Below, piece by piece: positions 38-38,939 of a stretch of DNA of 64,000 bases; positions within the stretch are counted from its first letter, which is position 1, and each line of letters opens with the position of its first letter. The notes beneath the pieces were generated by a model. It searched no databases. It was not told the origin of the DNA and worked only from the letters and a program-made list of their open reading frames with translations. The DNA is from Actinomycetota bacterium (GTDB lineage Bacteria > Actinomycetota > Acidimicrobiia > Acidimicrobiales > CAIXPF01). A program made the position numbers and the translations under genes. Location: contig JAXHUH010000073.1 in assembly GCA_034211175.1 (NCBI GenBank), positions 1 to 64,000 of the forward strand, read 5' to 3'.

Positions 38-1056
38 TCAGAGCGCGCTGATCGCGGACAGCGGGTGCGACATGAGCGTGCGGATGTAGTTCGCCCGCTC
101 GAACGCCGTCGGGTCCGGTGACGCCAGCTGGCTGAGGCTGCCCCGGGCCTGGTCCACCGAGACGTAGTCCCGGTCTCCGAACCAGGCGCGGATCCCGTCG
201 AGCACCCCGGCCACGTGGTGGGGGCCCCGCTGGAGCAGCGCCGCGGTCATCATCGTGACGTCCGCGCCGGCCAGGATCAGCTTGATGGCGTCCTCGTCGG
301 TGTGCACGCCCGTCGTGGCGGCCAGCGACGCGTCGAGGCGGCCGTGGAGGATGGCCATCCACCGCAGCGTGAGCCGCAGGTCGGCCGACGTGCTCAGCTG
401 CAGGTTGGGCACGACGGTCAGCTCATCGAGGTCGATGTCGGGCTGGTAGAAGCGGTTGAACAGCACGAGGCCGTCGGCGCCCGCATCGACGAGGCGCCGG
501 GCGAGGTGGCCCGGTGAGCTGACGTAGGGCCCGATCTTGACCGCGAGCGGCATCGACACCGCCGCCCGCACTTGCTCCACGAGCCGCACGTACTGGTCGT
601 CGATCTCGGCCGAGGACCGGTCGAGGTCGGCGGCCACGTAGTACACGTTCAGCTCCAGCGCGTCGGCGCCCGTGTCCTCGATGTCGCGGGCGAACGCCGT
701 CCACCCGCCCGGGGTCACGCCGTTGAGGCTGGCGATCACCGGGATGTCGAGCGCGTCGGTCGCCCGGTGCACGAGGTCGAGGTAGCGCTCGGGACCCGAG
801 TTGTAGCCGTCGAGCTCGGGCAGGTAGCCGTCGGTGGCCTCGGGGTGGTGACCGATGCCGAGCTCCAGCTCGTCGTGCACGGCCAGCGCCTCGGCCACGA
901 CCTGCTCCTCGAACAGCGACGGCAGGACGACGGCGGCCACGCCGGCGGACTGGAGCTCGACGAGCCGGCCCACGTCACCGGTCAGCGGGGAGGCGGACGC
1001 CACGACCGGGTTGGCGAGCTGCAACCCGAGGTAACGGGTGGTGAGATCGGTGACGG

Positions 1057-4638: not shown

Positions 4639-4913
4639 GCTGCGTGCTCCTGGCTCTGGAGTTGTCGCGGCGCGTCGGCCACGGGCGCTGCGTCCCGCTG
4701 GCGCGCTCGCAGGGGGGGGTGACACCGGTTCCCGGCGGGGCCTGCTGCTGCGCAGGTCCGCCCGTCCGGGTGCTGGGTGCTGTGTCGGTGGGTCGTGTCG
4801 GGTCTGTTACCGATCACGGTGCTCGGGGCGCCCGCTCGTCACCAGGGGCGAACGGCCTACAGGCCATGGGCCCACGTCACGACCCGAACCGCCGGTGTCG
4901 ACAGCGCATCCGC

Positions 4914-28524: not shown

Positions 28525-30114
28525 GTGCCGGTGAGCCAGCCAGCTCCCCGTGACGGGCGACCCGATCCGACCACCGATGACCGGCGCCTCCGGGTGCTGG
28601 TCATCGGCGCGACCGGCTACGTCGGTGGCCGCCTGACCCCCCGCCTCCTCGCCGAGGGCCACCGCGTCCGTTGTCTGGTGCGGCGGCCGCCGAAGCTCAC
28701 CGCCCGTGTCTGGCACGAGCGGGTCGAGGTCCACAAGGGCGACGTCACCGACGCCGAGTCCCTCGAGGGTGCGTTCGACGACATCGACGTCGTCTACCAC
28801 CTGGTGCACTCGATGGGCGGCGGCGACGACTTCGCCGAGGTCGACCGGAAGGCCGCGGCCAACGTCGCCGAGGCCGCGGCCGCTGCCGGGGTCCGCCAGA
28901 TCGTCTACCTCGGCGGCCTCGGTGACGAGTCCGACCCGTCGGGTGCCGCGGCCGCGCTGTCACCCCACCTCGAGAGCCGCCACGAGGTCGGGCGCGTGCT
29001 CGCGTCCGGGTCGGTGCCGGTGACCGAGCTGCGGGCGGCCGTGATCATCGGGTCCGGCTCGGCGTCGTTCGAGATGCTGCGCTCCCTGGTCGAGGTGCTG
29101 CCGGCGATGATCACCCCGTCGTGGGTGCGCCGGTCGCGGTGCCAGCCGATCGCCATCGCCGACGTCCTCGACGACCTCGTCGGCGTTGCCGGGCTCGAGG
29201 ACGCCATGGGGCAGGTGCTCGACATCGGCGGCACCGACGTCGTGACCTACCAGGAGATGATGGTCACCTTCGCCGAGGTCGCCGAGCTGAACCGGCGCAT
29301 CGTCGTGCCCGTGCCGCTGATCTCGCCCCGGCTCAGCACCCACTGGGTCAACCTCGTCACCCCACTGCCGATCGGGCTGGCCCGGGAGCTGGTCAGCAGC
29401 CTGGTCAACGACGTCGTCGTCCGCGACGACCACGACATCAACCGCGTGCTGCCCCGCGAGCGCCTCGGGTTCCGCGAGGCGATCGCCGACGCGCTGGCCC
29501 GCATCGAGGACCGCGAGGCATCGACGAGCTGGTCCGACGCCAGCCTGGCCAGCCGCCCGGCCGAGCCGTGGAACTACGACCCGTCGTGGGCCGGCGCGAC
29601 CCTCTACGACGACGTCCGCACCCGCACGACGACGGCGTCGCCCGAGCGCACGTTCCGCACCATCGAGGGTGTCGGCGGGCGGCGCAGCTGGTACGTCGCC
29701 GATCCGCTGTGGAAGCTGCGTGGCCTGATCGACAAGCTCGTCGGCGGCGTCGGCCTGTCCCGGGGTCGGCGCGACCCCGACGAGCTGCGGGTCGGTGACG
29801 CGCTCGACTTCTGGCGGGTCGAGGAGCTCGACGAGCCGACCCGCCTGCGCCTGCGGGCCGAGATGCGCCTCCCGGGCCGGGCGTGGCTCGAGTGGCGGCT
29901 GCGGGGCCTCCCCGACGGGGGTGCCGAGGTCACCCAGCGGGCGATCTACCACCCGAAGGGCCTGGCCGGACGCGCCTACTGGTGGGTCCTGTGGCCGTTC
30001 CACGGGGTGATCTTCCCCCGCATGCTGCGTCGCCTCGTCGCCGAGGCCGAGGAGAAGGCCGCCGCGGCCGGCTCGAACGGCGGTCGCGCCCGGTCCCCGG
30101 TCGCCGCGGGCTGA
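28525..30114 (+). CDS. NAD(P)H-binding (NmrA/SDR-like) domain fused to DUF2867
   Basis: Rossmann motif VLVIGATGYVGGRL, then a DUF2867-like C-terminal half. GTG start near 28525 assumed. The 959-aa track ORF is an artefact that extends upstream antisense to the MMPL gene. Confidence 0.75.
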   Translation: MPVSQPAPRDGRPDPTTDDRRLRVLVIGATGYVGGRLTPRLLAEGHRVRCLVRRPPKLTARVWHERVEVHKGDVTDAESLEGAFDDIDVVYHLVHSMGGGDDFAEVDRKAAANVAEAAAAAGVRQIVYLGGLGDESDPSGAAAALSPHLESRHEVGRVLASGSVPVTELRAAVIIGSGSASFEMLRSLVEVLPAMITPSWVRRSRCQPIAIADVLDDLVGVAGLEDAMGQVLDIGGTDVVTYQEMMVTFAEVAELNRRIVVPVPLISPRLSTHWVNLVTPLPIGLARELVSSLVNDVVVRDDHDINRVLPRERLGFREAIADALARIEDREASTSWSDASLASRPAEPWNYDPSWAGATLYDDVRTRTTTASPERTFRTIEGVGGRRSWYVADPLWKLRGLIDKLVGGVGLSRGRRDPDELRVGDALDFWRVEELDEPTRLRLRAEMRLPGRAWLEWRLRGLPDGGAEVTQRAIYHPKGLAGRAYWWVLWPFHGVIFPRMLRRLVAEAEEKAAAAGSNGGRARSPVAAG

Positions 30115-30138
30115 CGGTTCGGGCCGCGGCGCGGTCCG

Positions 30139-30567
30139 TCACTCCACCAGCTTGCGCAACAGCCCGTCGAGCGTGGCCCGCTCCTCGTCGGTGAGCACGG
30201 CGAACGCCTCCCGGTCGACGTCGCGGACCACGGGGTAGGCGCGCCCCAGCAGCTCGTGGCCGGCGTCGGTGACGACGAGGTTCGACGGGCGACCGCGTCC
30301 GGCGTCACCGCGCTCGATCAGCCCGGCCGACGCCAGGCTGCGCAGCAGCTCGCTCATGCTCTGCGGGGTGATCAGCACCCGTCGTGCCAGTTCACCCTGG
30401 CTCAGCGTCTCGTCGTCGGCCACGAGGGCCAGGACGCTGAACTGGCGCGGATTGATGCCGCTCTCCCGCAGTGCCTCGTGCCACGACCGGGAGACGGTGT
30501 CGGCGGCGCGGGCGAGCAGGTAGCCGAGCTGGCGGTCGGGCTCCAGGGGCGCGCTCGGATCGTCCAC
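30139..30567 (-). CDS. MarR family transcriptional regulator
   Basis: wHTH (LSQGELARRVLITPQSMSELLRSLASAGLIERGDAGRGRPSNLVVTDAG). GTG start at 30567 assumed. Confidence 0.8.
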   Translation of the reverse strand: MDDPSAPLEPDRQLGYLLARAADTVSRSWHEALRESGINPRQFSVLALVADDETLSQGELARRVLITPQSMSELLRSLASAGLIERGDAGRGRPSNLVVTDAGHELLGRAYPVVRDVDREAFAVLTDEERATLDGLLRKLVE

Positions 30568-30611
30568 GACGTCGTACCTACACCCCCCTGCGACGGAACC
30601 GCCACGCGAGC

Positions 30612-30651
30612 CATCAGGTTCCTGATACTCTCCTCTATCAGGAACCTGATG
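30612..30651. promoter_or_regulatory. perfect 16/16 inverted repeat CATCAGGTTCCTGATA-N8-TATCAGGAACCTGATG (each arm itself near-palindromic) in the MarR/DUF1772 divergent intergenic region
   Basis: Read directly. Lower-GC island, 45 nt upstream of the MarR start and 70 nt upstream of the DUF1772 start. Confidence 0.6.
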
Positions 30652-30720
30652 GTCTGCGCGCGGTCGTCGGGTGCTGGTCGAGGTCCGGTGGATGCCGGAC
30701 GTGGTGAACGGGAGGCAGCA

Positions 30721-31272
30721 GTGACGACGACGGGAACAGGGGCCGCGGCGGGGATCGCGGCGATCTCGGGAGGTGCCGACGAGCGCCCGTGGCGTCGGTG
30801 GTCGACGCTCGGGGCGGTGCTCGGGCTCCTGCACTGGTTCTTCGGCAACCTCTACGAAGCCGTCGTCATCTCGCCGAACTGGGTCGTCGAGTCGCCCGCG
30901 CAGCTCACGCGGCTCAACGACTTCTTCGCGCGGACCAGCCCGACCCTCTACTTCGTGCCGGTGCTGGTCGTGGCGGTTGCGCTGACCTGGTGGCTGTGGG
31001 CGACGGCCCGCGGCTCGGTCGCCGCCACCGCCTACCGCCGCGCCGGCTGGTTGGCCGTGGTGGCGATGGCGGTCAACACGGTCGTCGTCGTGACCGTCGT
31101 GAGCGTGCTCTTCGGAGACGAGGCGACGCGGGCCGACGCCGATCTCACCGCCTACGCGTGGCGGTGGAACGTGCTCAACGTCGTCCGCATGGTCCTCGTC
31201 GCCGCGACCGCCGTCCAGCTGTTCGAGGCCTTTCGCCGGCTCGACCGGGCGGCCGAGCCGGCGCAGACCTGA
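30721..31272 (+). CDS. DUF1772-like (anthrone-oxygenase-like) small membrane protein
   Basis: 183 aa from GTG 30721 with a GGGAGG SD 8 nt upstream. Four hydrophobic helices and conserved Trp-rich segments. Confidence 0.6.
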   Translation: MTTTGTGAAAGIAAISGGADERPWRRWSTLGAVLGLLHWFFGNLYEAVVISPNWVVESPAQLTRLNDFFARTSPTLYFVPVLVVAVALTWWLWATARGSVAATAYRRAGWLAVVAMAVNTVVVVTVVSVLFGDEATRADADLTAYAWRWNVLNVVRMVLVAATAVQLFEAFRRLDRAAEPAQT

Positions 31273-31290
31273 CGGCGGCGCCCCGGCGGC

Positions 31291-33822
31291 TCAGCGCCAG
31301 AAGGTGCGGCGCCGCGTGCCGGTGTCCGACGGCCCGCCGTCGCCGGTCCCGTTGGTGTCGCCTGCGTCGTCGGCGAAGGCGTCGATGGCGGCGAGGGTGG
31401 CGCGATCGTCGCCTGCCGTCCCGGTCGTCCACGCCGTCGCGGCGTCGACGATCGCCCGTAGGCGATCGACGAGCCCCGCCGTCGCGCCGACCGACGTCAG
31501 GTCGTCGACGAGGAGCCGCAGCCGGCCGATCGCCCTGCGGGCCTCGTCGCGATCGCCGCCGGTGATCGCGGAGCGGAGCGCGGCGAGCTCGTCGTCGATC
31601 CGGTCGCGGTAGCGGGCCTCGGGCGGGTTCGCCGGCTCCTCGCGGCGGGCGCCGTCGGATCCACGGTCGCCGGCGGCCTCTCGTGCCGGGCGCCGCCGCA
31701 GGGCCCTGCCCAGGCGGCCGCCCGTCGCCTCGAGGTGGAGGGACGTCTGTGCTGCGGGCGGGGGCTGTGGCGACGCGAACGCGACGAACCCGTCGCCCGC
31801 GGCCGGTGATGCGGCGGCCGGCGCCGAGGCGACGAACGCCCGCATCGGAGGTGACGGTGGCGCCGCGGATGCCTGCTCCCAGCCGGAGGGCAACTCGACC
31901 GGCTGGACGATCCTCGCCGGGTCCGTCGACGACGTGCGCTCGGTGGTGTCGACGGCCAGGTACGCAGTGAACCGGCTGAGCACCCCGAACTGCAGCGAGG
32001 TGGCGATGATCCGGTCGGCCAGCCCGGCGTCGGGGCGCACGGCGTGGGCGTCCTCGAGATCCCGGACGCGGGCTCGGGCCCACATCGCGTGACCGGCCCG
32101 GTCGTCGACGCGGCAGGCGACCTCGGCGGTCCACGGGTCCCCGAGCTCGTCGGTCGCCGCCAGCGTGACCGTCGCCGGTGGGCGGCCCCGGTAGCGGCCG
32201 GCCACGACGAGCGGCACCCCTTCGAAGCAGTCGGCGCGGCCCGGGGTGGTGTCGTCGGCGACCACGTCGAAGCCGCCGCTCCCGGGTTCGCCGGCGTCGT
32301 GGTCACCGGCGTGGATGGTGAGGTCGCGCAGGACGGGTCGGGCGATGCGACGGTGGAGCGCCGTCATGACCTCGTCGAGGCGGTCCTCCGATTCGACGAG
32401 CTCGCACCGCCCGGCGCCGGCCGCCGCGAGGCGCCGGAGGAAGCCGGCGTTGACGGCCCGGTCGATGCCGACGGTGAACAGCCGCGCCGAGCCGAGCTTC
32501 GGGTCGAGCCCGGCGAGGATCTGGTCCTCGTTGCCGACCTGGCCGTCGGTGACGACCACGACGACGGCGTCCCGGTCACCGGACTCCTCGAGCGGCGCGA
32601 CGGCCTGCGTGAGCGCCGGCAGCATCTGGGTGCCACCCCGGGCGTCGAGGCGGGACAGGAACTCGACGGCCGCGTAGCGGTTCCGATCGGTGGCGGCGAC
32701 GAGCCCGTCCTGGTCGGGCGGGGTCTCGCACACGTGGTCGAACGCGACCACGGCGAACCGGTCGGTGCTGCGCAGCGAGTCGACGATCCGGGCCGCGGCA
32801 CGGCGGGCGGCGACCATCTTCCACCCCTGCATCGAGCCCGACCGGTCGAGGACGAGCACGACGTCGCGGGGCCCCGAACCCGTGGCCGCCGGTGGCACGA
32901 CCGTGGCATACCAGGTCCCGGTCCCGCGGTCTCCCGCGTCGCCGGCGCCGGGCTCGTTCACGTGGTCGGCGGCCGTCGTCGGCGTCGCGGTGTCGGGGGT
33001 GCACGTGACCCCGGTGGTGATCGTGTCGCCCCCGATCCCGAACCGGAGGACGAAGTCCCGGTCGACCCGCTCGCCGGGGCGCAGCTCGACCCGCATCGGC
33101 CCGGTGCCTGCCCCGTCGGTCATCACGACGTCGTGCAGCGCCGACCGCAGCCCACGGAGCCCGAGGTCGTCCGCGTCGATCGTCACGCCGACGGACAGGC
33201 GCACCGGGTTCGGGGAGCCCGGAAGGAGGACCGGGGGCGAGATCGTCGATGCGTCGGGCACCGCGTCGGTGTCGTCGGTGGTCCCGCCGGCGACGTTCGG
33301 CCCGTCGAGCGGGCTGCCGGGGACGTACCGGGGTGCGGTCACGAGCGGGAAGCGGAACGTGGCCTCGGCGCCGTCGACCGGGAGGCGCCACTCGAGATCG
33401 AGCTCGACGACCGCGGTCTCGCCCGGCCCGATGTTGCCGACCCGCATGGAGAACGTGTCCGGCCGGTTCTCCTCGGCGATGGCGGCGCGACGGCCCTGCT
33501 CGATCGCCTCGTCGTAGCCGGCCCGGGCCGCGGCGCGCTCCATCAGGGTGCCGTCGACGACGCGGTCGGCCACCGTCATGCGGAACCGGGTGACCGCGGC
33601 ACGGTCGGGGAGCGGGTGGAGGTAGGTGGCCTCGATCGCCCGGTCGAGGCGGTTCTCGAACGTCTGGCGCACCCGGACTCGGGCGACGAGGCCGGCGATG
33701 TGGCCGTCGACGTCGAGCGCCACCAGCGGCAGCGCCCCCTCCTCGGTCCGCAGCTCGCTCGGTGTGTCGCTCCAGGGCTCGTCGAGCTCGTCCGGTCGCA
33801 TCGTCGGGACGGGTGTGGTCAT
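31291..33822 (-). CDS. VIT (vault/inter-alpha-trypsin) domain + von Willebrand factor type A domain protein, 843 aa
   Basis: N-terminal VIT-like region, then a vWA domain with intact MIDAS (VLVLDRSGSM...GGT...VVVVTDGQVG), then a long Ala/Pro-rich C-terminal region. The ATG overlaps the stop of the upstream MerR gene as ATGA (33819-33822). Confidence 0.8.
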   Translation of the reverse strand: MTTPVPTMRPDELDEPWSDTPSELRTEEGALPLVALDVDGHIAGLVARVRVRQTFENRLDRAIEATYLHPLPDRAAVTRFRMTVADRVVDGTLMERAAARAGYDEAIEQGRRAAIAEENRPDTFSMRVGNIGPGETAVVELDLEWRLPVDGAEATFRFPLVTAPRYVPGSPLDGPNVAGGTTDDTDAVPDASTISPPVLLPGSPNPVRLSVGVTIDADDLGLRGLRSALHDVVMTDGAGTGPMRVELRPGERVDRDFVLRFGIGGDTITTGVTCTPDTATPTTAADHVNEPGAGDAGDRGTGTWYATVVPPAATGSGPRDVVLVLDRSGSMQGWKMVAARRAAARIVDSLRSTDRFAVVAFDHVCETPPDQDGLVAATDRNRYAAVEFLSRLDARGGTQMLPALTQAVAPLEESGDRDAVVVVVTDGQVGNEDQILAGLDPKLGSARLFTVGIDRAVNAGFLRRLAAAGAGRCELVESEDRLDEVMTALHRRIARPVLRDLTIHAGDHDAGEPGSGGFDVVADDTTPGRADCFEGVPLVVAGRYRGRPPATVTLAATDELGDPWTAEVACRVDDRAGHAMWARARVRDLEDAHAVRPDAGLADRIIATSLQFGVLSRFTAYLAVDTTERTSSTDPARIVQPVELPSGWEQASAAPPSPPMRAFVASAPAAASPAAGDGFVAFASPQPPPAAQTSLHLEATGGRLGRALRRRPAREAAGDRGSDGARREEPANPPEARYRDRIDDELAALRSAITGGDRDEARRAIGRLRLLVDDLTSVGATAGLVDRLRAIVDAATAWTTGTAGDDRATLAAIDAFADDAGDTNGTGDGGPSDTGTRRRTFWR

Positions 33823-34511
33823 CGTGTCCGCCTTTCGGGGCCGCTCGCTGCTGTGGCGTCGGGGTCGTCGTCTCGGAGGAGCCCCCGGGCGCGCAGCTCG
33901 TCGAGGAGCTGGTGGGCCGCGGCTGTGACCGCGGCGCCATCGGCCGTGGTCGGCATGCGCCCGGCCGGGAAGCTCAGGTGGACCCCGGGCGCCAGTTCCA
34001 CGGCAGCCAGCACCGGGGTCGTGTCCTCGGCGGGGGTCGTGTCCTCGTCCACGGGGGCCGGCGTCGCAGCCCAGAACGCGGCGGACCGGTGCGTCGGTCC
34101 CGCGGGCGCGGGTTGGCGCGGCGTGGGCTGCGGCACCGGTTGCCGCGGACGCGCCTCGGCGGACGCGGCCCTCGTGGCCGTCGTGGCCACGGCCCCGATG
34201 GCGGCGAGCTCCCGGTCGGTGCGGCCGACGAGGCGCTGCTGGATGTCGCCCAGCGCGACGTCGTCGGCCTGGAGCCGCTTGATGGCCAGCACCTGGAGCA
34301 CGTGGCGCTCGCCGTAGAGCGCCGTGCGGCCCCGGTGGGACACCGGCGGGTCCAGGAGCCCGAGCGTGCGGTAGTAGCGCAGCGTCCGCTCGGTCGGTGC
34401 GGCACCGTTGCCGTCGGGCGCGCGCAGATGCCGACCGACCTGCCGCACGAGCTCGTCGATCGTGAACGTCGCCCCGTCCGGCGCTGATGCTGATCCCGGC
34501 GTCGTTCCCAT
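33819..34511 (-). CDS. MerR family HTH protein, Cys-free, with Pro-rich linker and ~90-aa C-terminal domain
   Basis: MerR HTH (FTIDELVRQVGRHLRAPDGNGAAPTERTLRYYRTLGLLDP) with an unusual insertion in the recognition region. There are no cysteines. Translationally coupled (ATGA) to the VIT-vWA gene. Confidence 0.8.
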   Translation of the reverse strand: MGTTPGSASAPDGATFTIDELVRQVGRHLRAPDGNGAAPTERTLRYYRTLGLLDPPVSHRGRTALYGERHVLQVLAIKRLQADDVALGDIQQRLVGRTDRELAAIGAVATTATRAASAEARPRQPVPQPTPRQPAPAGPTHRSAAFWAATPAPVDEDTTPAEDTTPVLAAVELAPGVHLSFPAGRMPTTADGAAVTAAAHQLLDELRARGLLRDDDPDATAASGPERRTR

Positions 34512-34519
34512 CGCCGCCC

Positions 34520-34542
34520 ACTGTAACAGTCACTGTGACAGT
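34520..34542. promoter_or_regulatory. 23-bp near-perfect dyad ACTGTAACAGT-C-ACTGTGACAGT (20/23 self-complementary; two nested 11-bp palindromes), 8 nt upstream of the MerR start
   Basis: Read directly in the 100-bp gap between the MerT-like gene's stop and the MerR ATG. Confidence 0.45.
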
Positions 34543-34612
34543 ACTGCGGGGAAACGGGGAGATCGGTGGGGCCCGGGTCTGCGGCGCGAGGTCTCGGGCT
34601 CGGCCGTCGAGC

Positions 34613-34849
34613 TCAGTGTCGGGTCGGCTCGGTTGTGTCCGGAGCGGGGTCGCCGTCGCCGCGGCCGCTCCGCCGTCGGGCCGCGGCACGTGCCCCGACG
34701 ACGATGAGCACGCCGAGTACGGCGATGACCGGACCGCCGGCGCGATCGAGCGCCGCCCCGACCCCGACCCCGACCGCGGCGAGCAGCGGCCCCGCGCAGC
34801 ACGCCAGGCATCCGACTGCGCCGAGGGCGGCGAGCCGCCGCCCGCTCAT
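34613..34849 (-). CDS. small two-helix membrane protein with MerT/MerF-like vicinal-cysteine helix (78 aa)
   Basis: MSGRRLAALGAVGCLACCAGPLLAAVGVGVGAAL resembles MerT TM1 (…SPCCWLPLLAVALGVSGAWL…), followed by a second hydrophobic helix. The ATG overlaps the upstream regulator's stop as ATGA (34846-34849). Confidence 0.55.
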   Translation of the reverse strand: MSGRRLAALGAVGCLACCAGPLLAAVGVGVGAALDRAGGPVIAVLGVLIVVGARAAARRRSGRGDGDPAPDTTEPTRH

Positions 34850-35622
34850 GCGGGGACCCCGAAGACCGCGTCGACGAGCTCTGCGGCGTCGGACGGGGTC
34901 CGCACCTCGAGCGCGACGCCGCGGTGGTCGACGGTGATGGTGAAGGCGAAGAACGTGCAGCACGCCTGCTCGGCCACGACCAGGCGGGTCAGCTCGTCGA
35001 TCGGTGCCGCCGGGACGAGCTCGAGGCGGAGGCCTCCGTCGTCGGTGCGGGACCGGTGGCGCACGTGGTCGAGGAACCGGCCCCAGTCCGCAGCGCGGTC
35101 GGGGATCTCGTCGGCGGACAGGGTGCAGGTGATGGCCGGGTCGCCCGTGGTCCCGAGCGGCACCCCCGTCGGCCGGACATCGTCGGCGTCACCGCCGTCG
35201 GATCGGCACCCGCACCCGGCGCTCATGCACGCGCACCCCTCGTCGCACGGGCCGTCGATCGGTGCGCCACCGAGGCGGGCGGCCGCGGTCTGCAGCTGCG
35301 CCGTGAGCCGCACGAGCTCGGCGCTGCGGGTGCGGGCATCGGCGATCTTGGTCGTCACCAGCGCGTGGAGCCGGGCCTGCACCGGTTCGCACTCGTCGCT
35401 GTCCCACAGCTCGACGAGGTCGGCGATCTCCTCGAGGCTGCACCCGAGCTGCTTGGCCCGGGCGATGAACCCGAGACGCTGCAGCGAACGATCGTCGTAG
35501 AGGCGGTAGCCGGCGTCGGTGCGCCCGGCCGGCTCGAGGAGGCCGTGCTGCTCGTAGTAGCGCAGCGTCGAGGCCGGGAAGCCGCTCCGCTCGGCGACCT
35601 GGCTGATGGTGAACGAGGCCAT
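34846..35622 (-). CDS. MerR family regulator with Cys-cluster (GPCDEGCACMSAGCGCRS) and C-terminal ~110-aa domain bearing a CC motif (EQACCTFFAF)
   Basis: MerR HTH at the N-terminus (FTISQVAERSGFPASTLRYYEQHGLLEP), then a coiled coil and the Cys cluster. The second domain is of unknown family. Confidence 0.75.
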   Translation of the reverse strand: MASFTISQVAERSGFPASTLRYYEQHGLLEPAGRTDAGYRLYDDRSLQRLGFIARAKQLGCSLEEIADLVELWDSDECEPVQARLHALVTTKIADARTRSAELVRLTAQLQTAAARLGGAPIDGPCDEGCACMSAGCGCRSDGGDADDVRPTGVPLGTTGDPAITCTLSADEIPDRAADWGRFLDHVRHRSRTDDGGLRLELVPAAPIDELTRLVVAEQACCTFFAFTITVDHRGVALEVRTPSDAAELVDAVFGVPA

Positions 35623-35677
35623 GGGGCGACGGTAGACCTTCGACCCGACTCGAAGGTCAAGGCCCGGTCGCCATCCC

Positions 35678-36000
35678 TCAGCGCGACGCGTACATGATCA
35701 CGGCCACGCCGACGAGGCAGATGGCGGCGCCGGTGAGGTCCCAGCGATCCGGTCGGAAGTCGTCCGCGACCACGCCCCAGGCCAGCGAGCCGGCGACGAA
35801 GATCCCGCCGTAGGCGGCCAGGACCCGCCCGAAGTGGTCGTCGTCCTGCAGCGTCGCCACGAAGCCGTAGGCCCCGGCAAGCTGAACGCAGCTCGACCGG
35901 AGGGCGCAGCCCGACGGCGAGCGAGGCTCAGCCGATCTCCGCGAGCGCGGCGAGGACGAACAGGGCGAGGGAGCGGCCGACGGGCACGTCGCGACCGTAG
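35678..36000 (-). pseudogene. ynfA: ynfA-like (UPF0060 small membrane protein) gene disrupted by an in-frame TGA and a frameshift (~20-nt internal deletion)
   Basis: Frame B encodes …[14 protein letters not shown] then TGA. Frame A encodes the rest ([67 protein letters not shown]). Both halves match the UPF0060/YnfA family order. This could also be an assembly error. Confidence 0.5.
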
Positions 36001-36029
36001 GCGCCGGGCAGACGGGCCCGCGTCGAACC

Positions 36030-37478
36030 TCAGTCGCGATGCCTGGGCGCGCGGACGTGGAGGGGGTGGCCGAGGGCGCCGTGGGCGGCTTCGGCGATGG
36101 CCTCGGCGAGCGTCGGGTGGGCGTGGATCGTGCCGGCGACGTCCTCGAGCGTGGCGGCCATCTCCACCGCGAGCGCGGCCTCGCCGGCCAGCTCGGCGAC
36201 ACCGGGCCCGACGAGATGGATGCCGAGGACCGTGCCCTCGGCGTCGGCGACGATCTCGGCGTGGCCGAGGTCGCGACCGAGCGACAGCGCCCGACCGTTG
36301 GCGGCGAACGGGAACCGGAACGTGGTCAGCTCGGCGGTCGCTCCCGCCGCGTCCTCGCCGTCGCGATCGCCGTCGGGCCTGACGCCGACGCTGACGACCT
36401 CGGGGTCGCAGAACACGACCTGGGGGACGGCAGCGGGGGAGAACGCCGCCGGTTCGCCGCACGCAGTGGCCGCGGCGACCTCGGCCTCGGCCGTCGCCTT
36501 GTGGGCCAGCGCCGGGCCGGCGGTGACGTCGCCGATGGCCAGGATCGTCGGCGCCGCCCGGCGGTCCGGACCGACCGGGATGTAGCCGGCGCCGTCGACC
36601 TCGACACCGACCCGGGCCAGGCCGAGATCGTCGGTGTTGGGCCGCCGGCCCACCGCCATGAGCACCACCTCGGCAGCCAGTCGATGCTCGGTCCGGTCGT
36701 CGTCGCCATCGTCGCCCGCCACCTCGCGCACGACGAGGTCGGGACCGTCGAGCCCGGCGGCGGCCGTGCCGGTGAGCACGGTGACCCCGAGCTGACGCAG
36801 CCGGCGGGCAACCACCCGGCCGAGGCTGGCAGCCATCCCGGGCAGGAGCCGGTCGGCTGCCTCGACGATCGTGACCTGCGCGCCGAGCTTCGCCCATGCC
36901 GTGCCCAGCTCGAGGCCGATGTAGCCGCCACCCACCACGACGAGGCGCTCGGGCACACGGTCGAGTCGCAGGGCGGCCGTCGAATCGATGACCCGGGTCC
37001 CGTCGAACGGCAGCATCGCGAGCTCGACCGGGCGGGACCCGGTGGCCACGATGGCCTGGGAGAACTCGACGTGGGTCACCCCCTCGCCGTGGACGACCGC
37101 GGCGCGGTCGGCGCGGCTGAACCGGGCCGTGCCCTCGACGACGGTCACGCCGGCGCCGTCGAGGAGCTGGCGCACGCCACCGGTGAGCCGGCCGACGACG
37201 GCGTCCATGTGCTCGCCGACCCGGGCGAGGTCGACCTCGGCCGACACGTCGACGCCCCACGAGCCGGCCTCGTGCGCGAGCGCCGCCGTCTCGGCCACGT
37301 GGATCAGCGTCTTCGACGGGATGCAGCCGACGTTGAGGCACACCCCGCCGACGGCGTCGCGCTCGACCAGGGTCACCGACCGGCCCCGCTCCGCGACCCG
37401 GAGCGCGGCGGCGTAGCCGCCGGGACCGCCGCCGATGACGAGCACGTCGGTGGAGGTCGCGAGCTCGCCGACGACCAC
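36030..37478 (-). CDS. lpdA: dihydrolipoyl dehydrogenase (E3)
   Basis: 482 aa. FAD motif [11 protein letters not shown], redox disulfide [13 protein letters not shown], and C-terminal [11 protein letters not shown] start. Confidence 0.92.
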
Positions 37479-37479
37479 G

Positions 37480-38823
37480 TCACACCTCCAGGAGCAGCAG
37501 GGTCGGATCGGCGACGCCGGCCATCACGTGGCGATGGAACGCCGTCGACAGGTCGCCGTCGATCAACCGGTGGTCGACGGCGATGCTCACCGGGAGGACG
37601 GGACGGACGGCGAGCTCACCGTCGACGACCCACGGTCGGGGCGCGGCGGCGCCGAACCCGACGATCGCCACCTGGGGCGGCACGATCAGCGGCGCGGCGT
37701 AGCGCCCGCCGAGGCTGCCGTAGTTGGTGATGGTGGCGGTGCCGCCCCGCATCTCGTCGGGCCCGAGCGACCCGCCGCGGGCGGCGTCGGTGAGCCGGGC
37801 GATCTCGGCGGCGAGGCTTCCCAGGCCGCGGCGGTCGGCGTGGCGGACCACCGGGACGACGAGGCCGTGGGGCGAGGCGACGGCGATGCCGACGTGGACG
37901 TCGGGGTGGACGGTGATCGTGCCGGCCTCGGGGTCGATGCTGGCGTTGACCAGTGGGAACGCCCGCAGCGCCCGGGCGACGGCCTTCACGAAGAACGCCA
38001 GCGGCGTCAGGCGCTGTGCCGCGGCGCCGCCCTCGTCCCGGAGCCGCGCCCGGGCGGCGAGCAGCTCCGTGGCGTCGAGGTCGTCGTGGGCCCAGATGTG
38101 GGGGATCTCGCTCCACGCCCGCGCCATGTTGGCGGCAGTCACCCGGCGCACGCCGCGCAGCGGGTGGGTGCCCGGTTCCATCTGGCCGAGCCCGGTCCCG
38201 GCCGGCGCCGCGGCGCCCACGGCCGGCTCGCCCGGCGGGACAGGCGCCGCCGGCGTGTCGCCGGTCGTGGGGGAGGGAGCCGCCGGGGCGGACGGGGCCG
38301 CCGGCGCCTCCGCGGCGGCCTCGACGTCGGTCCGCAGGATCCGACCGCCGGGCCCCGTGCCCTCGACCGTGTGCAGCTCCACCCCGAGCTCGACCGCCCG
38401 CTTGCGGGTGGCGGGTGACGCCTTCGGGCGACGCACGCCGCCACTCGACGGGGCCGACGGCGCCGACGCTGACGGTGCCGTCCCGGGCGCTGCCGTCGCC
38501 GCGTCGGCTGTGTTGTCCGCCGGGCCCGTCCCGTCCGCCGGCTGCGCGATGTCCGCCGCCGGCGCCGGTGGGGTCGAGGGCGCCCGGCCGTCGTCGATCT
38601 CGAACAGCACGTCGCCGACCCGGGCCAGGTCGCCGGGAGCGAACGCGAGGCGGTTGACCGTGCCCGCGGTCGGGGACGGGAGCTGGGTCTGGGACTTGTC
38701 GGTCAGCACCTCGACGACCGGTTGGTCGCGCTCCACCCGCTCGCCCTCGCCGACGAGCCACTCGACGATCTCGGCCTCCTCGAGGCCCTCGCCGATGTCG
38801 GGCAGACGGAACTCGACGGCCAT
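37480..38823 (-). CDS. 2-oxoacid dehydrogenase E2 (dihydrolipoamide acyltransferase), one lipoyl domain
   Basis: Lipoyl domain (EIVEWLVGEGERVERDQPVVEVLTDKSQTQL), Ala/Pro linker, E3-binding domain, and catalytic domain with DHRLIDG. Stop lies 1 nt from the lpdA start. Confidence 0.88.
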   Translation of the reverse strand: MAVEFRLPDIGEGLEEAEIVEWLVGEGERVERDQPVVEVLTDKSQTQLPSPTAGTVNRLAFAPGDLARVGDVLFEIDDGRAPSTPPAPAADIAQPADGTGPADNTADAATAAPGTAPSASAPSAPSSGGVRRPKASPATRKRAVELGVELHTVEGTGPGGRILRTDVEAAAEAPAAPSAPAAPSPTTGDTPAAPVPPGEPAVGAAAPAGTGLGQMEPGTHPLRGVRRVTAANMARAWSEIPHIWAHDDLDATELLAARARLRDEGGAAAQRLTPLAFFVKAVARALRAFPLVNASIDPEAGTITVHPDVHVGIAVASPHGLVVPVVRHADRRGLGSLAAEIARLTDAARGGSLGPDEMRGGTATITNYGSLGGRYAAPLIVPPQVAIVGFGAAAPRPWVVDGELAVRPVLPVSIAVDHRLIDGDLSTAFHRHVMAGVADPTLLLLEV

Positions 38824-38939
38824 CGCCGCTCCTCGCTGATCCGGCCGGCCCGCAGGGCGCGGCGGTCGGGTTGGGGCGAGTCCGACGGTACGCCATCGGT
38901 GCACACCGCGCCGGTGCGCTGTCTACCCTCGCGTCCACG

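Follow-up and report, generated by a model that had tools for sequence, protein, structure and literature searches.

A conserved MerR/VIT-vWA gene pair beside a MerR-type metal-sensor candidate in an actinobacterial contig

Results

Four genes in two overlapping pairs

In the window, a stretch of 64,000 nucleotides from an Actinomycetota bacterium, four open reading frames (G1 to G4) lie on the minus strand between positions 31291 and 35622, all at the coordinates given in an earlier note made from the sequence alone (Table 1). Both ATGA start/stop overlaps that it had reported were found again on reading the sequence, and MerP, MerA and MerB are absent from the block, which, as that note stated, is not a canonical mer operon. 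A lone 4-nt overlap is frequent in high-GC genomes and is weak evidence by itself; the overlaps carry weight here because they are conserved, between G3 and G4 in 54 of 74 loci across three phyla and, among 22 relatives with a G2-like gene, between G1 and G2 in 21.

Table 1. Genes, protein domains and promoter elements of the block and its upstream neighbour.
Feature	Position	Strand	Description
G1	34846..35622	-	MerR-family metal-sensor candidate, 258 aa
G2	34613..34849	-	Two-helix membrane protein, 78 aa; ATG overlaps G1 stop (ATGA, 34849-34846)
G3 (MerR2)	33819..34511	-	Cys-free short MerR-fold protein, 230 aa
G4	31291..33822	-	Cytoplasmic VIT-vWA protein, 843 aa; ATG overlaps G3 stop (ATGA, 33822-33819)
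G4 domains	residues 34-141; 320-482		VIT; vWA; hybrid and helical regions
G4 C-terminal part	residues 643-726; 735-820; tail 31311-31294		Disordered; 4-helix domain; tail RRRTFWR
Pair 1 promoter-operator	35623..35660	-	Read from sequence
Pair 1 -35	35660-35655	-	TTGACC
Pair 1 inverted repeat	35658-35650 / 35643-35635	-	GACCTTCGA-N6-TCGAAGGTC, inside 20-nt spacer
Pair 1 -10	35634-35629	-	TACCGT, then 6 nt to ATG
Broken ynfA/UPF0060 gene	35678..35987	-	Upstream of G1
Pair 2 promoter-operator	34512..34545	-	Window-clade variant; ACTGTCACAGT-G-ACTGTTACAGT at 34542-34520
Pair 2 operator core	34540-34529	-	TGTCA-N3-TGAC
Pair 2 -10	34525-34520	-	TACAGT, then 8 nt to ATG

G1 and G2

G1 matched the Pfam profiles MerR_1, MerR and MerR-DNA-bind and comprises a wHTH, a long helix for dimerisation, a cluster of Cys residues (C78, C126, C130 and C132, with C137 and C139 in addition) and, C-terminally, a 'CC' domain (C166, C221-C222), for which no Pfam model gave a match. 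More than 1000 full-length homologues were found, and C61, C78, C126, C132, C166 and C221-C222 were invariant in the homologue alignment, which bears out the earlier description of a first MerR with a Cys cluster and a second, CC-bearing domain. The best PDB match was B. megaterium MerR (4ua1), and the NCBIfam models for ZntR, CueR, MerR and CadR scored 66-91 bits, all under their equivalog cut-offs. G1 is a candidate canonical MerR-type metal sensor whose specificity class is fixed by no equivalog model. Like MerR, ZntR, CadR/PbrR and CueR, it combines a wHTH with a long dimerisation helix, has Cys at the start of this helix and in a C-terminal Cys loop, and has a promoter whose 20-bp spacer holds a central dyad (ACCTTCGA-N6-TCGAAGGT). 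What sets G1 apart from the canonical proteins is an extra domain of ~100 aa, the one in which C166 and C221-C222 are invariant, and its position: it would control an operon that it heads, instead of lying divergent to it.

The arms of the pair 1 inverted repeat are 9 nt long and 100% complementary (a perfect 9-6-9 dyad), and the same box, with identical geometry, was found upstream of essentially all G1 homologues (L081-L166). The 6 nt between the -10 hexamer and the ATG imply a leaderless transcript. Further upstream, the UPF0060 gene of the window is broken: the tblastn match to the intact UPF0060 proteins from L081 and L086 is split between two frames, and an in-frame TGA interrupts it at 35930-35928. 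Of 56 loci with G1 homologues, 10 have UPF0060 immediately upstream of G1, and it is a third, facultative member of the pair 1 neighbourhood; thallium(I) resistance phenotypes have been described for UPF0060 (bioRxiv 10.1101/072470).

G2 carries CxxCC (C14, C17, C18) in its first hydrophobic helix, and in the family alignment (consensus AACVACCAGPIL) C14 and C18 were invariant and C17 nearly so. Among the G1 homologues, 12 of the 48 long ones and 10 of the 20 short ones are followed by a G2-like gene; the G1/G2 pairing is facultative (25-50% of loci). The MerT profile (PF02411) matched 7 of 17 G2 relatives, with E values of 0.0012 or weaker and all below the gathering score, and did not match G2 of the window even at E<=10. 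The profile searches supported the MerR, VIT and VWA assignments of the earlier note but not MerT for G2, which stands as a 78-aa CxxCC membrane protein, its MerT-like label being reduced to a sub-threshold resemblance. G2 resembles MerT and MerF in that its first transmembrane helix contains a pair of vicinal Cys with G-P-[IL]-L behind it, and differs from them in having two helices only and a single Cys pair. We read pair 1 as an ordinary MerR metal switch with a small Cys-bearing membrane protein.

MerR2 and the VIT-vWA protein

Direct reading of G3 (MerR2) found no Cys. Its only Pfam match, to MerR_1, starts at residue 40, which corresponds to profile position 13, as would be expected if helices 1 and 2 were separated by an insertion. 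In the AF2 model, a helix at residues 18-29 is followed by an 11-residue loop and a helix at residues 41-49, and the wHTH as a whole (residues 15-105) contains the 11-residue insertion between helices 1 and 2. The missing Cys, the profile offset and the modelled loop confirm the earlier description of a Cys-free second MerR with an insertion in its HTH. A long alpha-5 helix carries the metal site of canonical MerR proteins, and a long alpha-5 coiled coil is absent from the MerR2 model. Without Cys and, in the model, without this helix, MerR2 lends no support, as far as pair 2 is concerned, to the suggested thiophilic-metal or redox sensor on a MIDAS scaffold. Beyond the wHTH, a disordered linker holds the invariant F146-W147 (34076-34071), and a conserved, well-folded C-terminal domain is formed by a beta-hairpin and two helices (residues 167-208; 34013-33888). 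The best matches of the model were GlnR, TnrA, CbpM and DafA, which are MerR-fold proteins that act via protein partners; the NCBIfam TnrA model matched 3 of 35 MerR2 members, weakly.

G4 matched the Pfam profiles VIT (1.4e-32) and VWA, and its MIDAS residues D326, S328, S330, T398 and D426 were invariant in alignments of 18 and 74 sequences, in agreement with the earlier reading as an 843-aa VIT and vWA protein with an intact MIDAS. On reading its sequence, no hydrophobic signal sequence was found at the N-terminus. The AF2 model had a pTM of 0.82, PDB profile searches matched PARP4 (5e-56), ITIH4 (1e-42) and ITIH1 (1e-27), and the best Foldseek match was ITIH1 (6fpy). G4 is related to human VWA5A, PARP4 and ITIH, and its closest known counterparts are intracellular eukaryotic proteins (VWA5A/BCSC-1, Dictyostelium Vwa1, the N-terminal region of PARP4) and the extracellular ITIH heavy chains. 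It shares with these the order VIT sandwich, hybrid, vWA with MIDAS, hybrid, helices and, behind a disordered linker, a helical C-terminal domain. Bacterial sequences were previously found to group with the intracellular VIT-vWA clade, and an identical layout was described (PMC10539598). Unlike the eukaryotic proteins, G4 is bacterial, is coupled to a DNA-binding protein and has a conserved R-R-x-F-W-K tail; no transcription-factor partner of a eukaryotic VIT-vWA protein was reported in PMC10539598 or in the literature searched.

MerR2 lies directly upstream of the VIT-vWA gene in 76 of 80 loci, the upstream DNA being missing for three of the four exceptions, and reverse look-ups from three MerR2 homologues found a VIT gene next in every case (3/3). 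The pair is found in three phyla (Actinomycetota, Planctomycetota and Myxococcota) and comprises more than 1000 clusters at 50% identity. These results uphold, for this pair, the earlier proposal of an uncharacterised module and show that MerR2 and the VIT-vWA protein form a widely conserved pair, translationally coupled to judge from the gene overlap, without a described function. In addition, MerR2 and the VIT-vWA protein have an R-x-F-W motif in common, which lies in disordered regions; it was present in 74 of 75 MerR2 sequences and C-terminally in 70 of 79 VIT-vWA proteins, and is retained even in a pseudokinase-fused variant. In the AF2 monomer models of G3 and G4, neither FW motif was docked, and both were of low confidence.

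The main form of the pair 2 promoter-operator, TTGACAsTGTCA-nnn-TGACAGTGTCA-N10-ATG, was found in about 70 of 76 loci, with TTGACA, two TGACAsTGTCA palindromes and the start codon in fixed order. TTGACA begins 15 nt ahead of the proximal palindrome (44/50 loci), the distance between palindromes is 14 nt (38/42), and the start codon follows 10-11 nt past the palindrome (49/65), which implies a leaderless transcript. The operator motif occurred 121 times in 990 kb of loci, almost solely at the MerR2 promoter. The pair 2 promoter of the window has no TTGACA -35, and its operator consists of ACTGTnACAGT twice, a form common to the closest relatives (including L172) only; TGTCANNNTGAC occurs a single time in the 64 kb window.

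Separate conservation of the two pairs

In a neighbourhood comparison of 80 genomes with a VIT-vWA gene, G1/G2 homologues were found at none of the 80 VIT-vWA loci, and G3/G4 homologues at none of 86 G1 loci, bar weak chance matches. Ortholog clustering of the 80 loci retrieved only VIT-vWA (80/80) and MerR2 (76/80) as conserved, the next cluster reaching 28/80, with no third conserved gene beside them. The four-gene order recurred in one close relative only, L172 (nucleotide identity 80-83%), and in L170 and L171, which belong to the same MerR2 subclade, TetR or CorA is found upstream instead of G1/G2. Furthermore, each pair has its own promoter-operator, conserved separately. The earlier view of the four genes as one module is not sustained by these comparisons. 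The 101-nt gap between G2 and G3 yielded no terminator-like site, so transcription may read through from G2 into G3; no G1 site was found in 34512-34612.

Discussion

We estimate at roughly 60% the probability that the block consists of two independent bicistronic operons side by side, G1-G2 (operon A) and G3-G4 (operon B), and that both work as follows. In operon A, G1 would act as a canonical activator of the MerR type, responding to a soft divalent metal and binding the 9-6-9 dyad inside the over-long 20-bp spacer of its own promoter; metal at C78, C126, C130 and C132 would realign the promoter, leading to expression of G1 itself and of G2, which probably binds the metal or passes it on at the membrane. 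The promoter geometry suggests that each operon is transcribed leaderless. In operon B, MerR2, a short MerR-fold protein of the GlnR/TnrA kind, would bind a pair of 11-bp palindromes spanning the -35, the spacer and the edge of the -10 of an optimally spaced promoter and thereby repress its own expression, the VIT-vWA protein being translated from the coupled downstream cistron. The latter may bind MerR2 and alter its DNA binding, possibly on sensing a ligand through its MIDAS or VIT surfaces, and the R-x-F-W peptides of both proteins are likely contact elements. Pair 2 would then be an autorepressor modulated by a VIT-vWA partner.

It is also conceivable, if rather unlikely, that MerR2 is a conventional autorepressor without a physical partnership, that the VIT-vWA protein has an unrelated cytoplasmic job, for example as a scaffold or adaptor, and that the FW motifs serve a third partner or are coincidental. 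An operator that overlaps the promoter would explain regulation without interaction, the FW peptides are undocked in the monomer models, and the intracellular VIT-vWA proteins of eukaryotes are presumed to act as scaffolds for protein interactions (PMC10539598). However, a reading without contact is hard to square with the stop/start overlap conserved across phyla, the strict pairing in both directions, the conserved extra C-terminal domain of MerR2 and the R-x-F-W motif common to both proteins.

We regard it as improbable that MerR2 and VIT-vWA form a mobile conflict or anti-phage module of the toxin-antitoxin kind, with the HTH protein as autorepressing antidote or regulator and the vWA protein as sensor or effector. 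The pair is a self-contained two-gene unit with variable neighbours, its identity of ~50% across phyla suggests horizontal transfer, and a small HTH autoregulator overlapping a larger partner recalls toxin-antitoxin loci. Against this, PADLOC found nothing for G4 and a generic HTH match for G3; nuclease, protease, NTPase and pore domains are all absent; no close relatives were found on plasmids or among 2.9 million viral contigs, where identity reached at most 29%; and integrases and defence genes are absent among the conserved neighbours.

A single thiophilic-metal or redox-sensing module of all four genes around a MIDAS scaffold is very unlikely: the genes are adjacent on the same strand, their order is repeated in L172 and no terminator separates G2 from G3, but the pairs never occur together in 80 and 86 independent loci, their promoters are conserved separately, TetR or CorA takes the upstream place in L170 and L171, and MerR2 has no Cys. 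It can practically be discounted that G4 belongs to the 'marine proteobacterial sortase target' adhesins, secreted or anchored at the surface, with G3 as its regulator. In favour stands the best NCBIfam match of G4, TIGR03788 (375 bits, residues 37-655), but the score lies under the 551.65 cut-off, G4 has neither a signal peptide nor a hydrophobic segment at its N-terminus, it has no sorting signal at its C-terminus (it ends in RRRTFWR), and true sortase-target proteins share only 31-34% identity.

For pair 2 as an autorepressor with a modulating partner, the closest known systems are TnrA/GlnR with glutamine synthetase (Bacillus, Staphylococcus), HspR-DnaK, CbpM-CbpA and DafA. In contrast to TnrA/GlnR-type systems, the putative partner is a VIT-vWA protein, whose gene shares the operon of MerR2 and overlaps its stop codon with the start codon; MerR2 itself adds the helix 1-2 insertion, the long disordered FW linker and the beta-hairpin/two-helix domain, and the operator consists of two 11-bp palindromes 14 bp apart.

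The four genes belong to two modules

The four minus-strand genes form two pairs, each joined by an ATGA stop/start overlap (34849-34846 and 33822-33819), as the earlier note had claimed. The first pair encodes a Cys-rich MerR-family protein (G1) and a small CxxCC membrane protein (G2), and the second encodes a further MerR-fold protein (G3, hereafter MerR2) and a VIT-vWA protein (G4). The window has a G+C content of ~72-76% and comes from an Actinomycetota MAG. Genes for the E3 (lipoamide dehydrogenase) and E2 components of a 2-oxoacid dehydrogenase complex lie directly upstream of the block, and a MarR-family gene lies downstream of it. The second operon terminates at G4, because a converging plus-strand membrane protein gene ends just beyond it. 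A sigma-70 and terminator scan of 31000-36100, of a kind ill-suited to high-GC promoters, gave no match, and an Rfam search of 30000-37000 gave none.

Positions of the features discussed, in window coordinates
Feature	Position	Strand	Remarks
MarR-family gene	within 30139-30834	minus	downstream of G4
Membrane protein gene	end at 31272	plus	converges on G4
G4 (VIT-vWA)	31291-33822	minus	843 aa
G3 (MerR2)	33819-34511	minus	230 aa
MerR2 operator repeats	34520-34542	minus	ACTGTnACAGT type
G2	34613-34849	minus	78 aa
G1	34846-35622	minus	258 aa
G1 C-terminal domain	34858-35145	minus	motif E-[QK]-x-C-C-x-F, invariant Cys upstream
ynfA/UPF0060	35678-35987	minus	split over two reading frames, in-frame TGA 35930-35928
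E3 gene	36030-37478	minus	482 aa
E3 and E2 genes	36030-38904	minus	E2, 474 aa

The analysis covered 80 loci, taken from species-representative genomes with a VIT-vWA homologue. In 76 the gene immediately upstream, on the same strand, is a MerR2 homologue. Of the other four, three have under 360 nt of sequence on that side, and one of these three, L062, still retains the C-terminal end of a MerR2 gene; L020 is the sole genuine exception. All-against-all ORF clustering of these loci returned only VIT-vWA (80/80) and MerR2 (76/80) as conserved, and the next cluster (28/80) was attributed to lineage synteny. The reverse look-up agreed, with a VIT gene following each of the three MerR2 homologues on long contigs. 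No G1 or G2 homologue was found near the VIT-vWA gene in any of the 80 loci, and no credible MerR2 or VIT-vWA homologue was found in 86 loci centred on G1 homologues. The complete four-gene order was seen again only in L172, the closest relative, with 80-83% nucleotide identity to the window, and two further members of the same MerR2 subclade carry a TetR or CorA gene upstream instead. Collectively, these results demonstrate that the block consists of two separate modules. The earlier note had taken them as a single thiophilic-metal or redox module; the co-conservation this entails is rejected by the counts from both sets of loci, and even with the recurrence in L172 we regard a single module as very improbable.

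MerR2 and VIT-vWA genes are paired behind a conserved operator

The MerR2 family comprises 1047 clusters at 50% identity (E <= 1e-30) and the VIT-vWA family more than 4000 matches, and carriers of the pair include Streptosporangiales, Micromonosporales, Acidimicrobiia, Gemmatales, Isosphaerales and Myxococcota. Among the carriers that can be cultivated are Actinomadura madurae ATCC 19425, Singulisphaera acidiphila and Planomonospora, and CP107927 and NZ_CP083237 are examples of complete genomes with the pair. In 54 of 74 loci the stop codon of MerR2 and the start codon of VIT-vWA share 4 nt, and in most others the two are no more than 36 nt apart; this retention upholds the translational coupling proposed from the window. 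Furthermore, a conserved element, TTGACAsTGTCA-nnn-TGACAGTGTCA-N10-ATG, precedes the MerR2 gene; an example from the main family, in a Streptosporangium or Actinomadura strain, is TTGACAGTGTCAnnnTGACAGTGTCA. Across 990 kb of loci we counted 121 copies of the operator 11-mer, almost exclusively at the MerR2 promoter position. Its geometry is fixed: TTGACA starts 15 nt ahead of the proximal palindrome in 44/50 cases, the palindrome starts are separated by 14 nt in 38/42, and the start codon follows the proximal palindrome by 10-11 nt in 49/65. The promoter thus has a consensus -35 element, a spacer of 17-18 nt rather than 19-20 bp, and a -10-like hexamer that shares bases with the palindrome. 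A leaderless mRNA is implied, since the start codon lies only ~7 nt beyond the -10 element. Because the operators span the -35 and -10 elements, occlusion is expected rather than the MerR twist mechanism. Taken together, these results demonstrate strict pairing of the two genes, their coupling and a shared operator/promoter geometry.

The operator of the window is a clade-specific variant, ACTGTCACAGT-G-ACTGTTACAGT, which lacks TTGACA and is also present in L172. The inner TGTCA-N3-TGAC core is retained, and 8 nt separate the TACAGT -10 hexamer from the ATG. The window clade has ACTGTnACAGT repeats where most of the family (L001-L080, the loci around VIT-vWA homologues) has TGACAsTGTCA, and comparison with these loci and with L170-L172, from the window's own MerR2 subclade, showed no difference in where the repeats lie with respect to the -10 element and start codon. 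Operator and regulator thus look like they have drifted together within one family. In Dactylosporangium darangshiense (L071, 4191-4903), about 10 extra operator cores (GGTGACAGTGTCAGC) are scattered along 700 bp of DNA ahead of the MerR2 gene, and a second promoter-like copy lies near 4653-4680; these could be an operator array or a titration site.

MerR2 and VIT-vWA share a short FW motif

MerR2 has a MerR-type winged HTH, and its Pfam MerR_1 match begins only at residue 40, consistent with the HTH insertion described in the earlier note, which had also correctly found the protein to be free of cysteine. It is not a classical MerR activator: besides having no Cys, its AF2 model contains only short helices beyond residue 95. 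MerR2 resembles GlnR/TnrA in structure and function only. Just 3 of 35 members match the NCBIfam TnrA model (NF053740), at E >= 0.028, which does not support membership, and VIT-vWA, rather than glnA, is conserved as its neighbour. A RiPP-recognition (PqqD-like) fold was also considered for the C-terminal domain of MerR2 and rejected, the single TIGR04353 match (E 0.0025, 1 of 35 members) being taken as chance.

The VIT and vWA assignments of G4 hold, with 112.6 bits (1.4e-32) for PF08487 and scores above the cut-offs for PF13768 and PF00092, and the MIDAS is intact, D326, S328, S330, T398 and D426 being invariant in 74 homologues. G4 resembles PARP4 (5e-56), ITIH4 and ITIH1, the last also by Foldseek (2.8e-33). 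Its AF2 model (pTM 0.82) runs from a VIT sandwich through hybrid, vWA and second hybrid domains to helices and an 80-residue disordered stretch, followed by a confident four-helix C-terminal domain and a disordered tail. Intracellular eukaryotic VIT-vWFA proteins have the same layout, and bacterial sequences have been placed in their group (PMC10539598).

In addition, the two proteins share a peptide. An R-x(1-2)-F-W motif was found in the disordered linker of MerR2 in 74/75 loci (F146-W147 in the window), and R-R-x-F-W-K-(R) at the VIT-vWA C-terminus in 70/79 (RRRTFWR in the window). In some homologues (such as L168, 4621-7695, and P0089), a kinase-like domain with HGT instead of HRD, probably a pseudokinase judging by this motif, replaces the helical C-terminal domain of VIT-vWA, while the NFWK end and the 4-nt overlap behind the MerR2 gene are kept.

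A possible partner switch

We tentatively propose, at a probability of about 0.3, that pair 2 is a widespread bacterial signalling module in which a cytoplasmic VIT-vWA sensor controls a GlnR-like repressor by exchange of R-x-F-W contacts, a partner switch that would be the prokaryotic counterpart of intracellular VWA5A, PARP4 and Dictyostelium Vwa1. The copies involved are those on the repressor linker and on the C-terminal tail of the sensor. In the mechanism that we favour for pair 2, MerR2 would occupy the two palindromes and repress its own leaderless operon; VIT-vWA, produced in fixed proportion, would bind MerR2, with the FW peptides, the C-terminal domain or both as the contact; and a ligand at the MIDAS or VIT surfaces of VIT-vWA would alter DNA binding by MerR2.

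Regulation by MerR2 without any interaction with VIT-vWA is a less likely alternative. The FW peptides of both proteins are undocked in the AF2 monomer models; we take the sharing of the motif as the strongest hint that MerR2 and VIT-vWA may meet or compete for one site. A conflict or defence module is unlikely. In PADLOC 2.0, MerR2 and G1 matched only the generic HTH of mad1 and neither G4 nor G2 had a match; an anti-phage role was rejected, with nothing specific in PADLOC and no close relatives in viral contigs or plasmids. That G4 is a secreted adhesin is hardly credible: it reaches 375 bits against TIGR03788 (marine proteobacterial sortase target), below the cut-off of 551.65, true members are 31-34% identical to it, and it has neither a signal peptide or hydrophobic N-terminus nor a C-terminal sorting signal.

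Our literature search returned no paper linking MerR to VIT-vWA in bacteria. Pair 2 combines known parts, a VIT-vWA protein and an HTH of the MerR fold, under an equally familiar logic in which a transcription factor regulates its own operon and is encoded together with its partner. In the literature found, there is no description of this combination, of the operator, of the departure from the classical MerR mechanism or of the FW motif common to both proteins. Proteins of the intracellular VIT-vWA type are found in organisms ranging from bacteria to humans (VWA5A/BCSC-1, PARP4), and what they do is essentially unexplained. The bacterial VIT-vWA protein brings three handles, namely a DNA-binding protein as obligate partner, a well-delimited operator/promoter and a short peptide common to both proteins, which turn the idea of a protein-interaction scaffold into the questions of what signal lifts repression and what ligand the MIDAS binds. 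Pair 2 also offers a clean case of a MerR-fold regulator that has abandoned promoter twisting and would instead simply occupy its operator, probably alongside a protein co-regulator. If true, the partner-switch reading would provide a tractable model for the eukaryotic intracellular VIT-vWA proteins.

Pair 1 resembles a MerR-type metal switch

G1 has an N-terminal winged HTH and a long alpha-5 dimerisation helix, and the MerR assignment made previously is borne out by Pfam, with PF13411 (MerR_1, 66.5 bits), PF00376 (MerR, 56.3) and PF09278 (MerR-DNA-bind, 50.7) all above their cut-offs. The Cys cluster and second CC-bearing domain also stood, C61, C78, C126, C132, C166 and C221-C222 being invariant and C130 at least 90% conserved among 28 homologues. 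The closest solved relative is MerR of B. megaterium, and C78 aligns within 2 residues of its Hg-binding Cys (4ua1). C78 occupies the helix-5 Cys position of divalent-metal sensors, and C126, C130 and C132 form the loop. Against the NCBIfam ZntR, CueR, MerR and CadR models G1 scored 66-91 bits, and as none of the equivalog cut-offs (147-168) was reached, no named metal specificity can be given.

MerR-type activation is marked by a promoter whose spacer is too long and has a dyad at its centre, as for MerR, ZntR and CueR. The G1 promoter reads TTGACC, a 20-nt spacer, TACCGT, 6 nt and ATG, and its spacer holds a perfect 9-6-9 inverted repeat, GACCTTCGA-N6-TCGAAGGTC; the identical box and geometry precede essentially all G1 homologues examined. 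The winged HTH with alpha-5, the Cys sites and the dyad promoter place G1 in the metal-sensing MerR branch.

The C-terminal domain of G1 (~100 residues) and its stand-alone relatives matched no Pfam family at E <= 10; it probably binds metal. The same domain was also found as a separate ORF of 80-130 aa beside short MerR variants (L145, L146, L152, L153, L155, L156 and L164).

G2 is a two-helix protein with CxxCC within its first hydrophobic helix, as had been described. The MerT/MerF-like label given to it was not supported: G2 had no MerT (PF02411) match at E <= 10, 7 of 17 relatives matched only below threshold (E 0.0012 or weaker), and the likeness is confined to the CC-GP motif of helix 1. 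With duplicate loci removed, a G2-like gene lies behind 12/48 long and 10/20 short G1 homologues, overlapping G1 by 4 nt in 21 of these 22 loci. MerA, MerP and MerB are all absent from 31291-35622, in agreement with the view that this is not a canonical mer operon. The E3 flavoprotein upstream was considered as a hidden MerA and rejected, as it has the CLNVGC lipoamide-dehydrogenase motif, lies behind the E2 gene and lacks the C-terminal Cys pair.

A UPF0060/YnfA gene is often found just upstream of G1 homologues, and thallium(I) resistance phenotypes have been reported for this family (bioRxiv 10.1101/072470). For the split copy in the window, the choice is between a pseudogene and an error in the MAG assembly; other loci have an intact gene ahead of their G1 homologues. 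From these sequence features, pair 1 appears to be a canonical MerR-type metal switch with additions, a soft-metal response unit that is ordinary in kind. It represents a large unnamed Cys-rich MerR branch with an extra CC domain, a small CC membrane partner and a frequent thallium-linked UPF0060 neighbour. In L081-L084, which belong to one metagenomic lineage, the UPF0060/G1/G2 block has as neighbours a pair of tyrosine-integrase genes and another short MerR gene, the latter coupled to a pyridine-nucleotide-disulfide oxidoreductase gene, possibly MerA; this arrangement suggests a mobile metal-resistance island.
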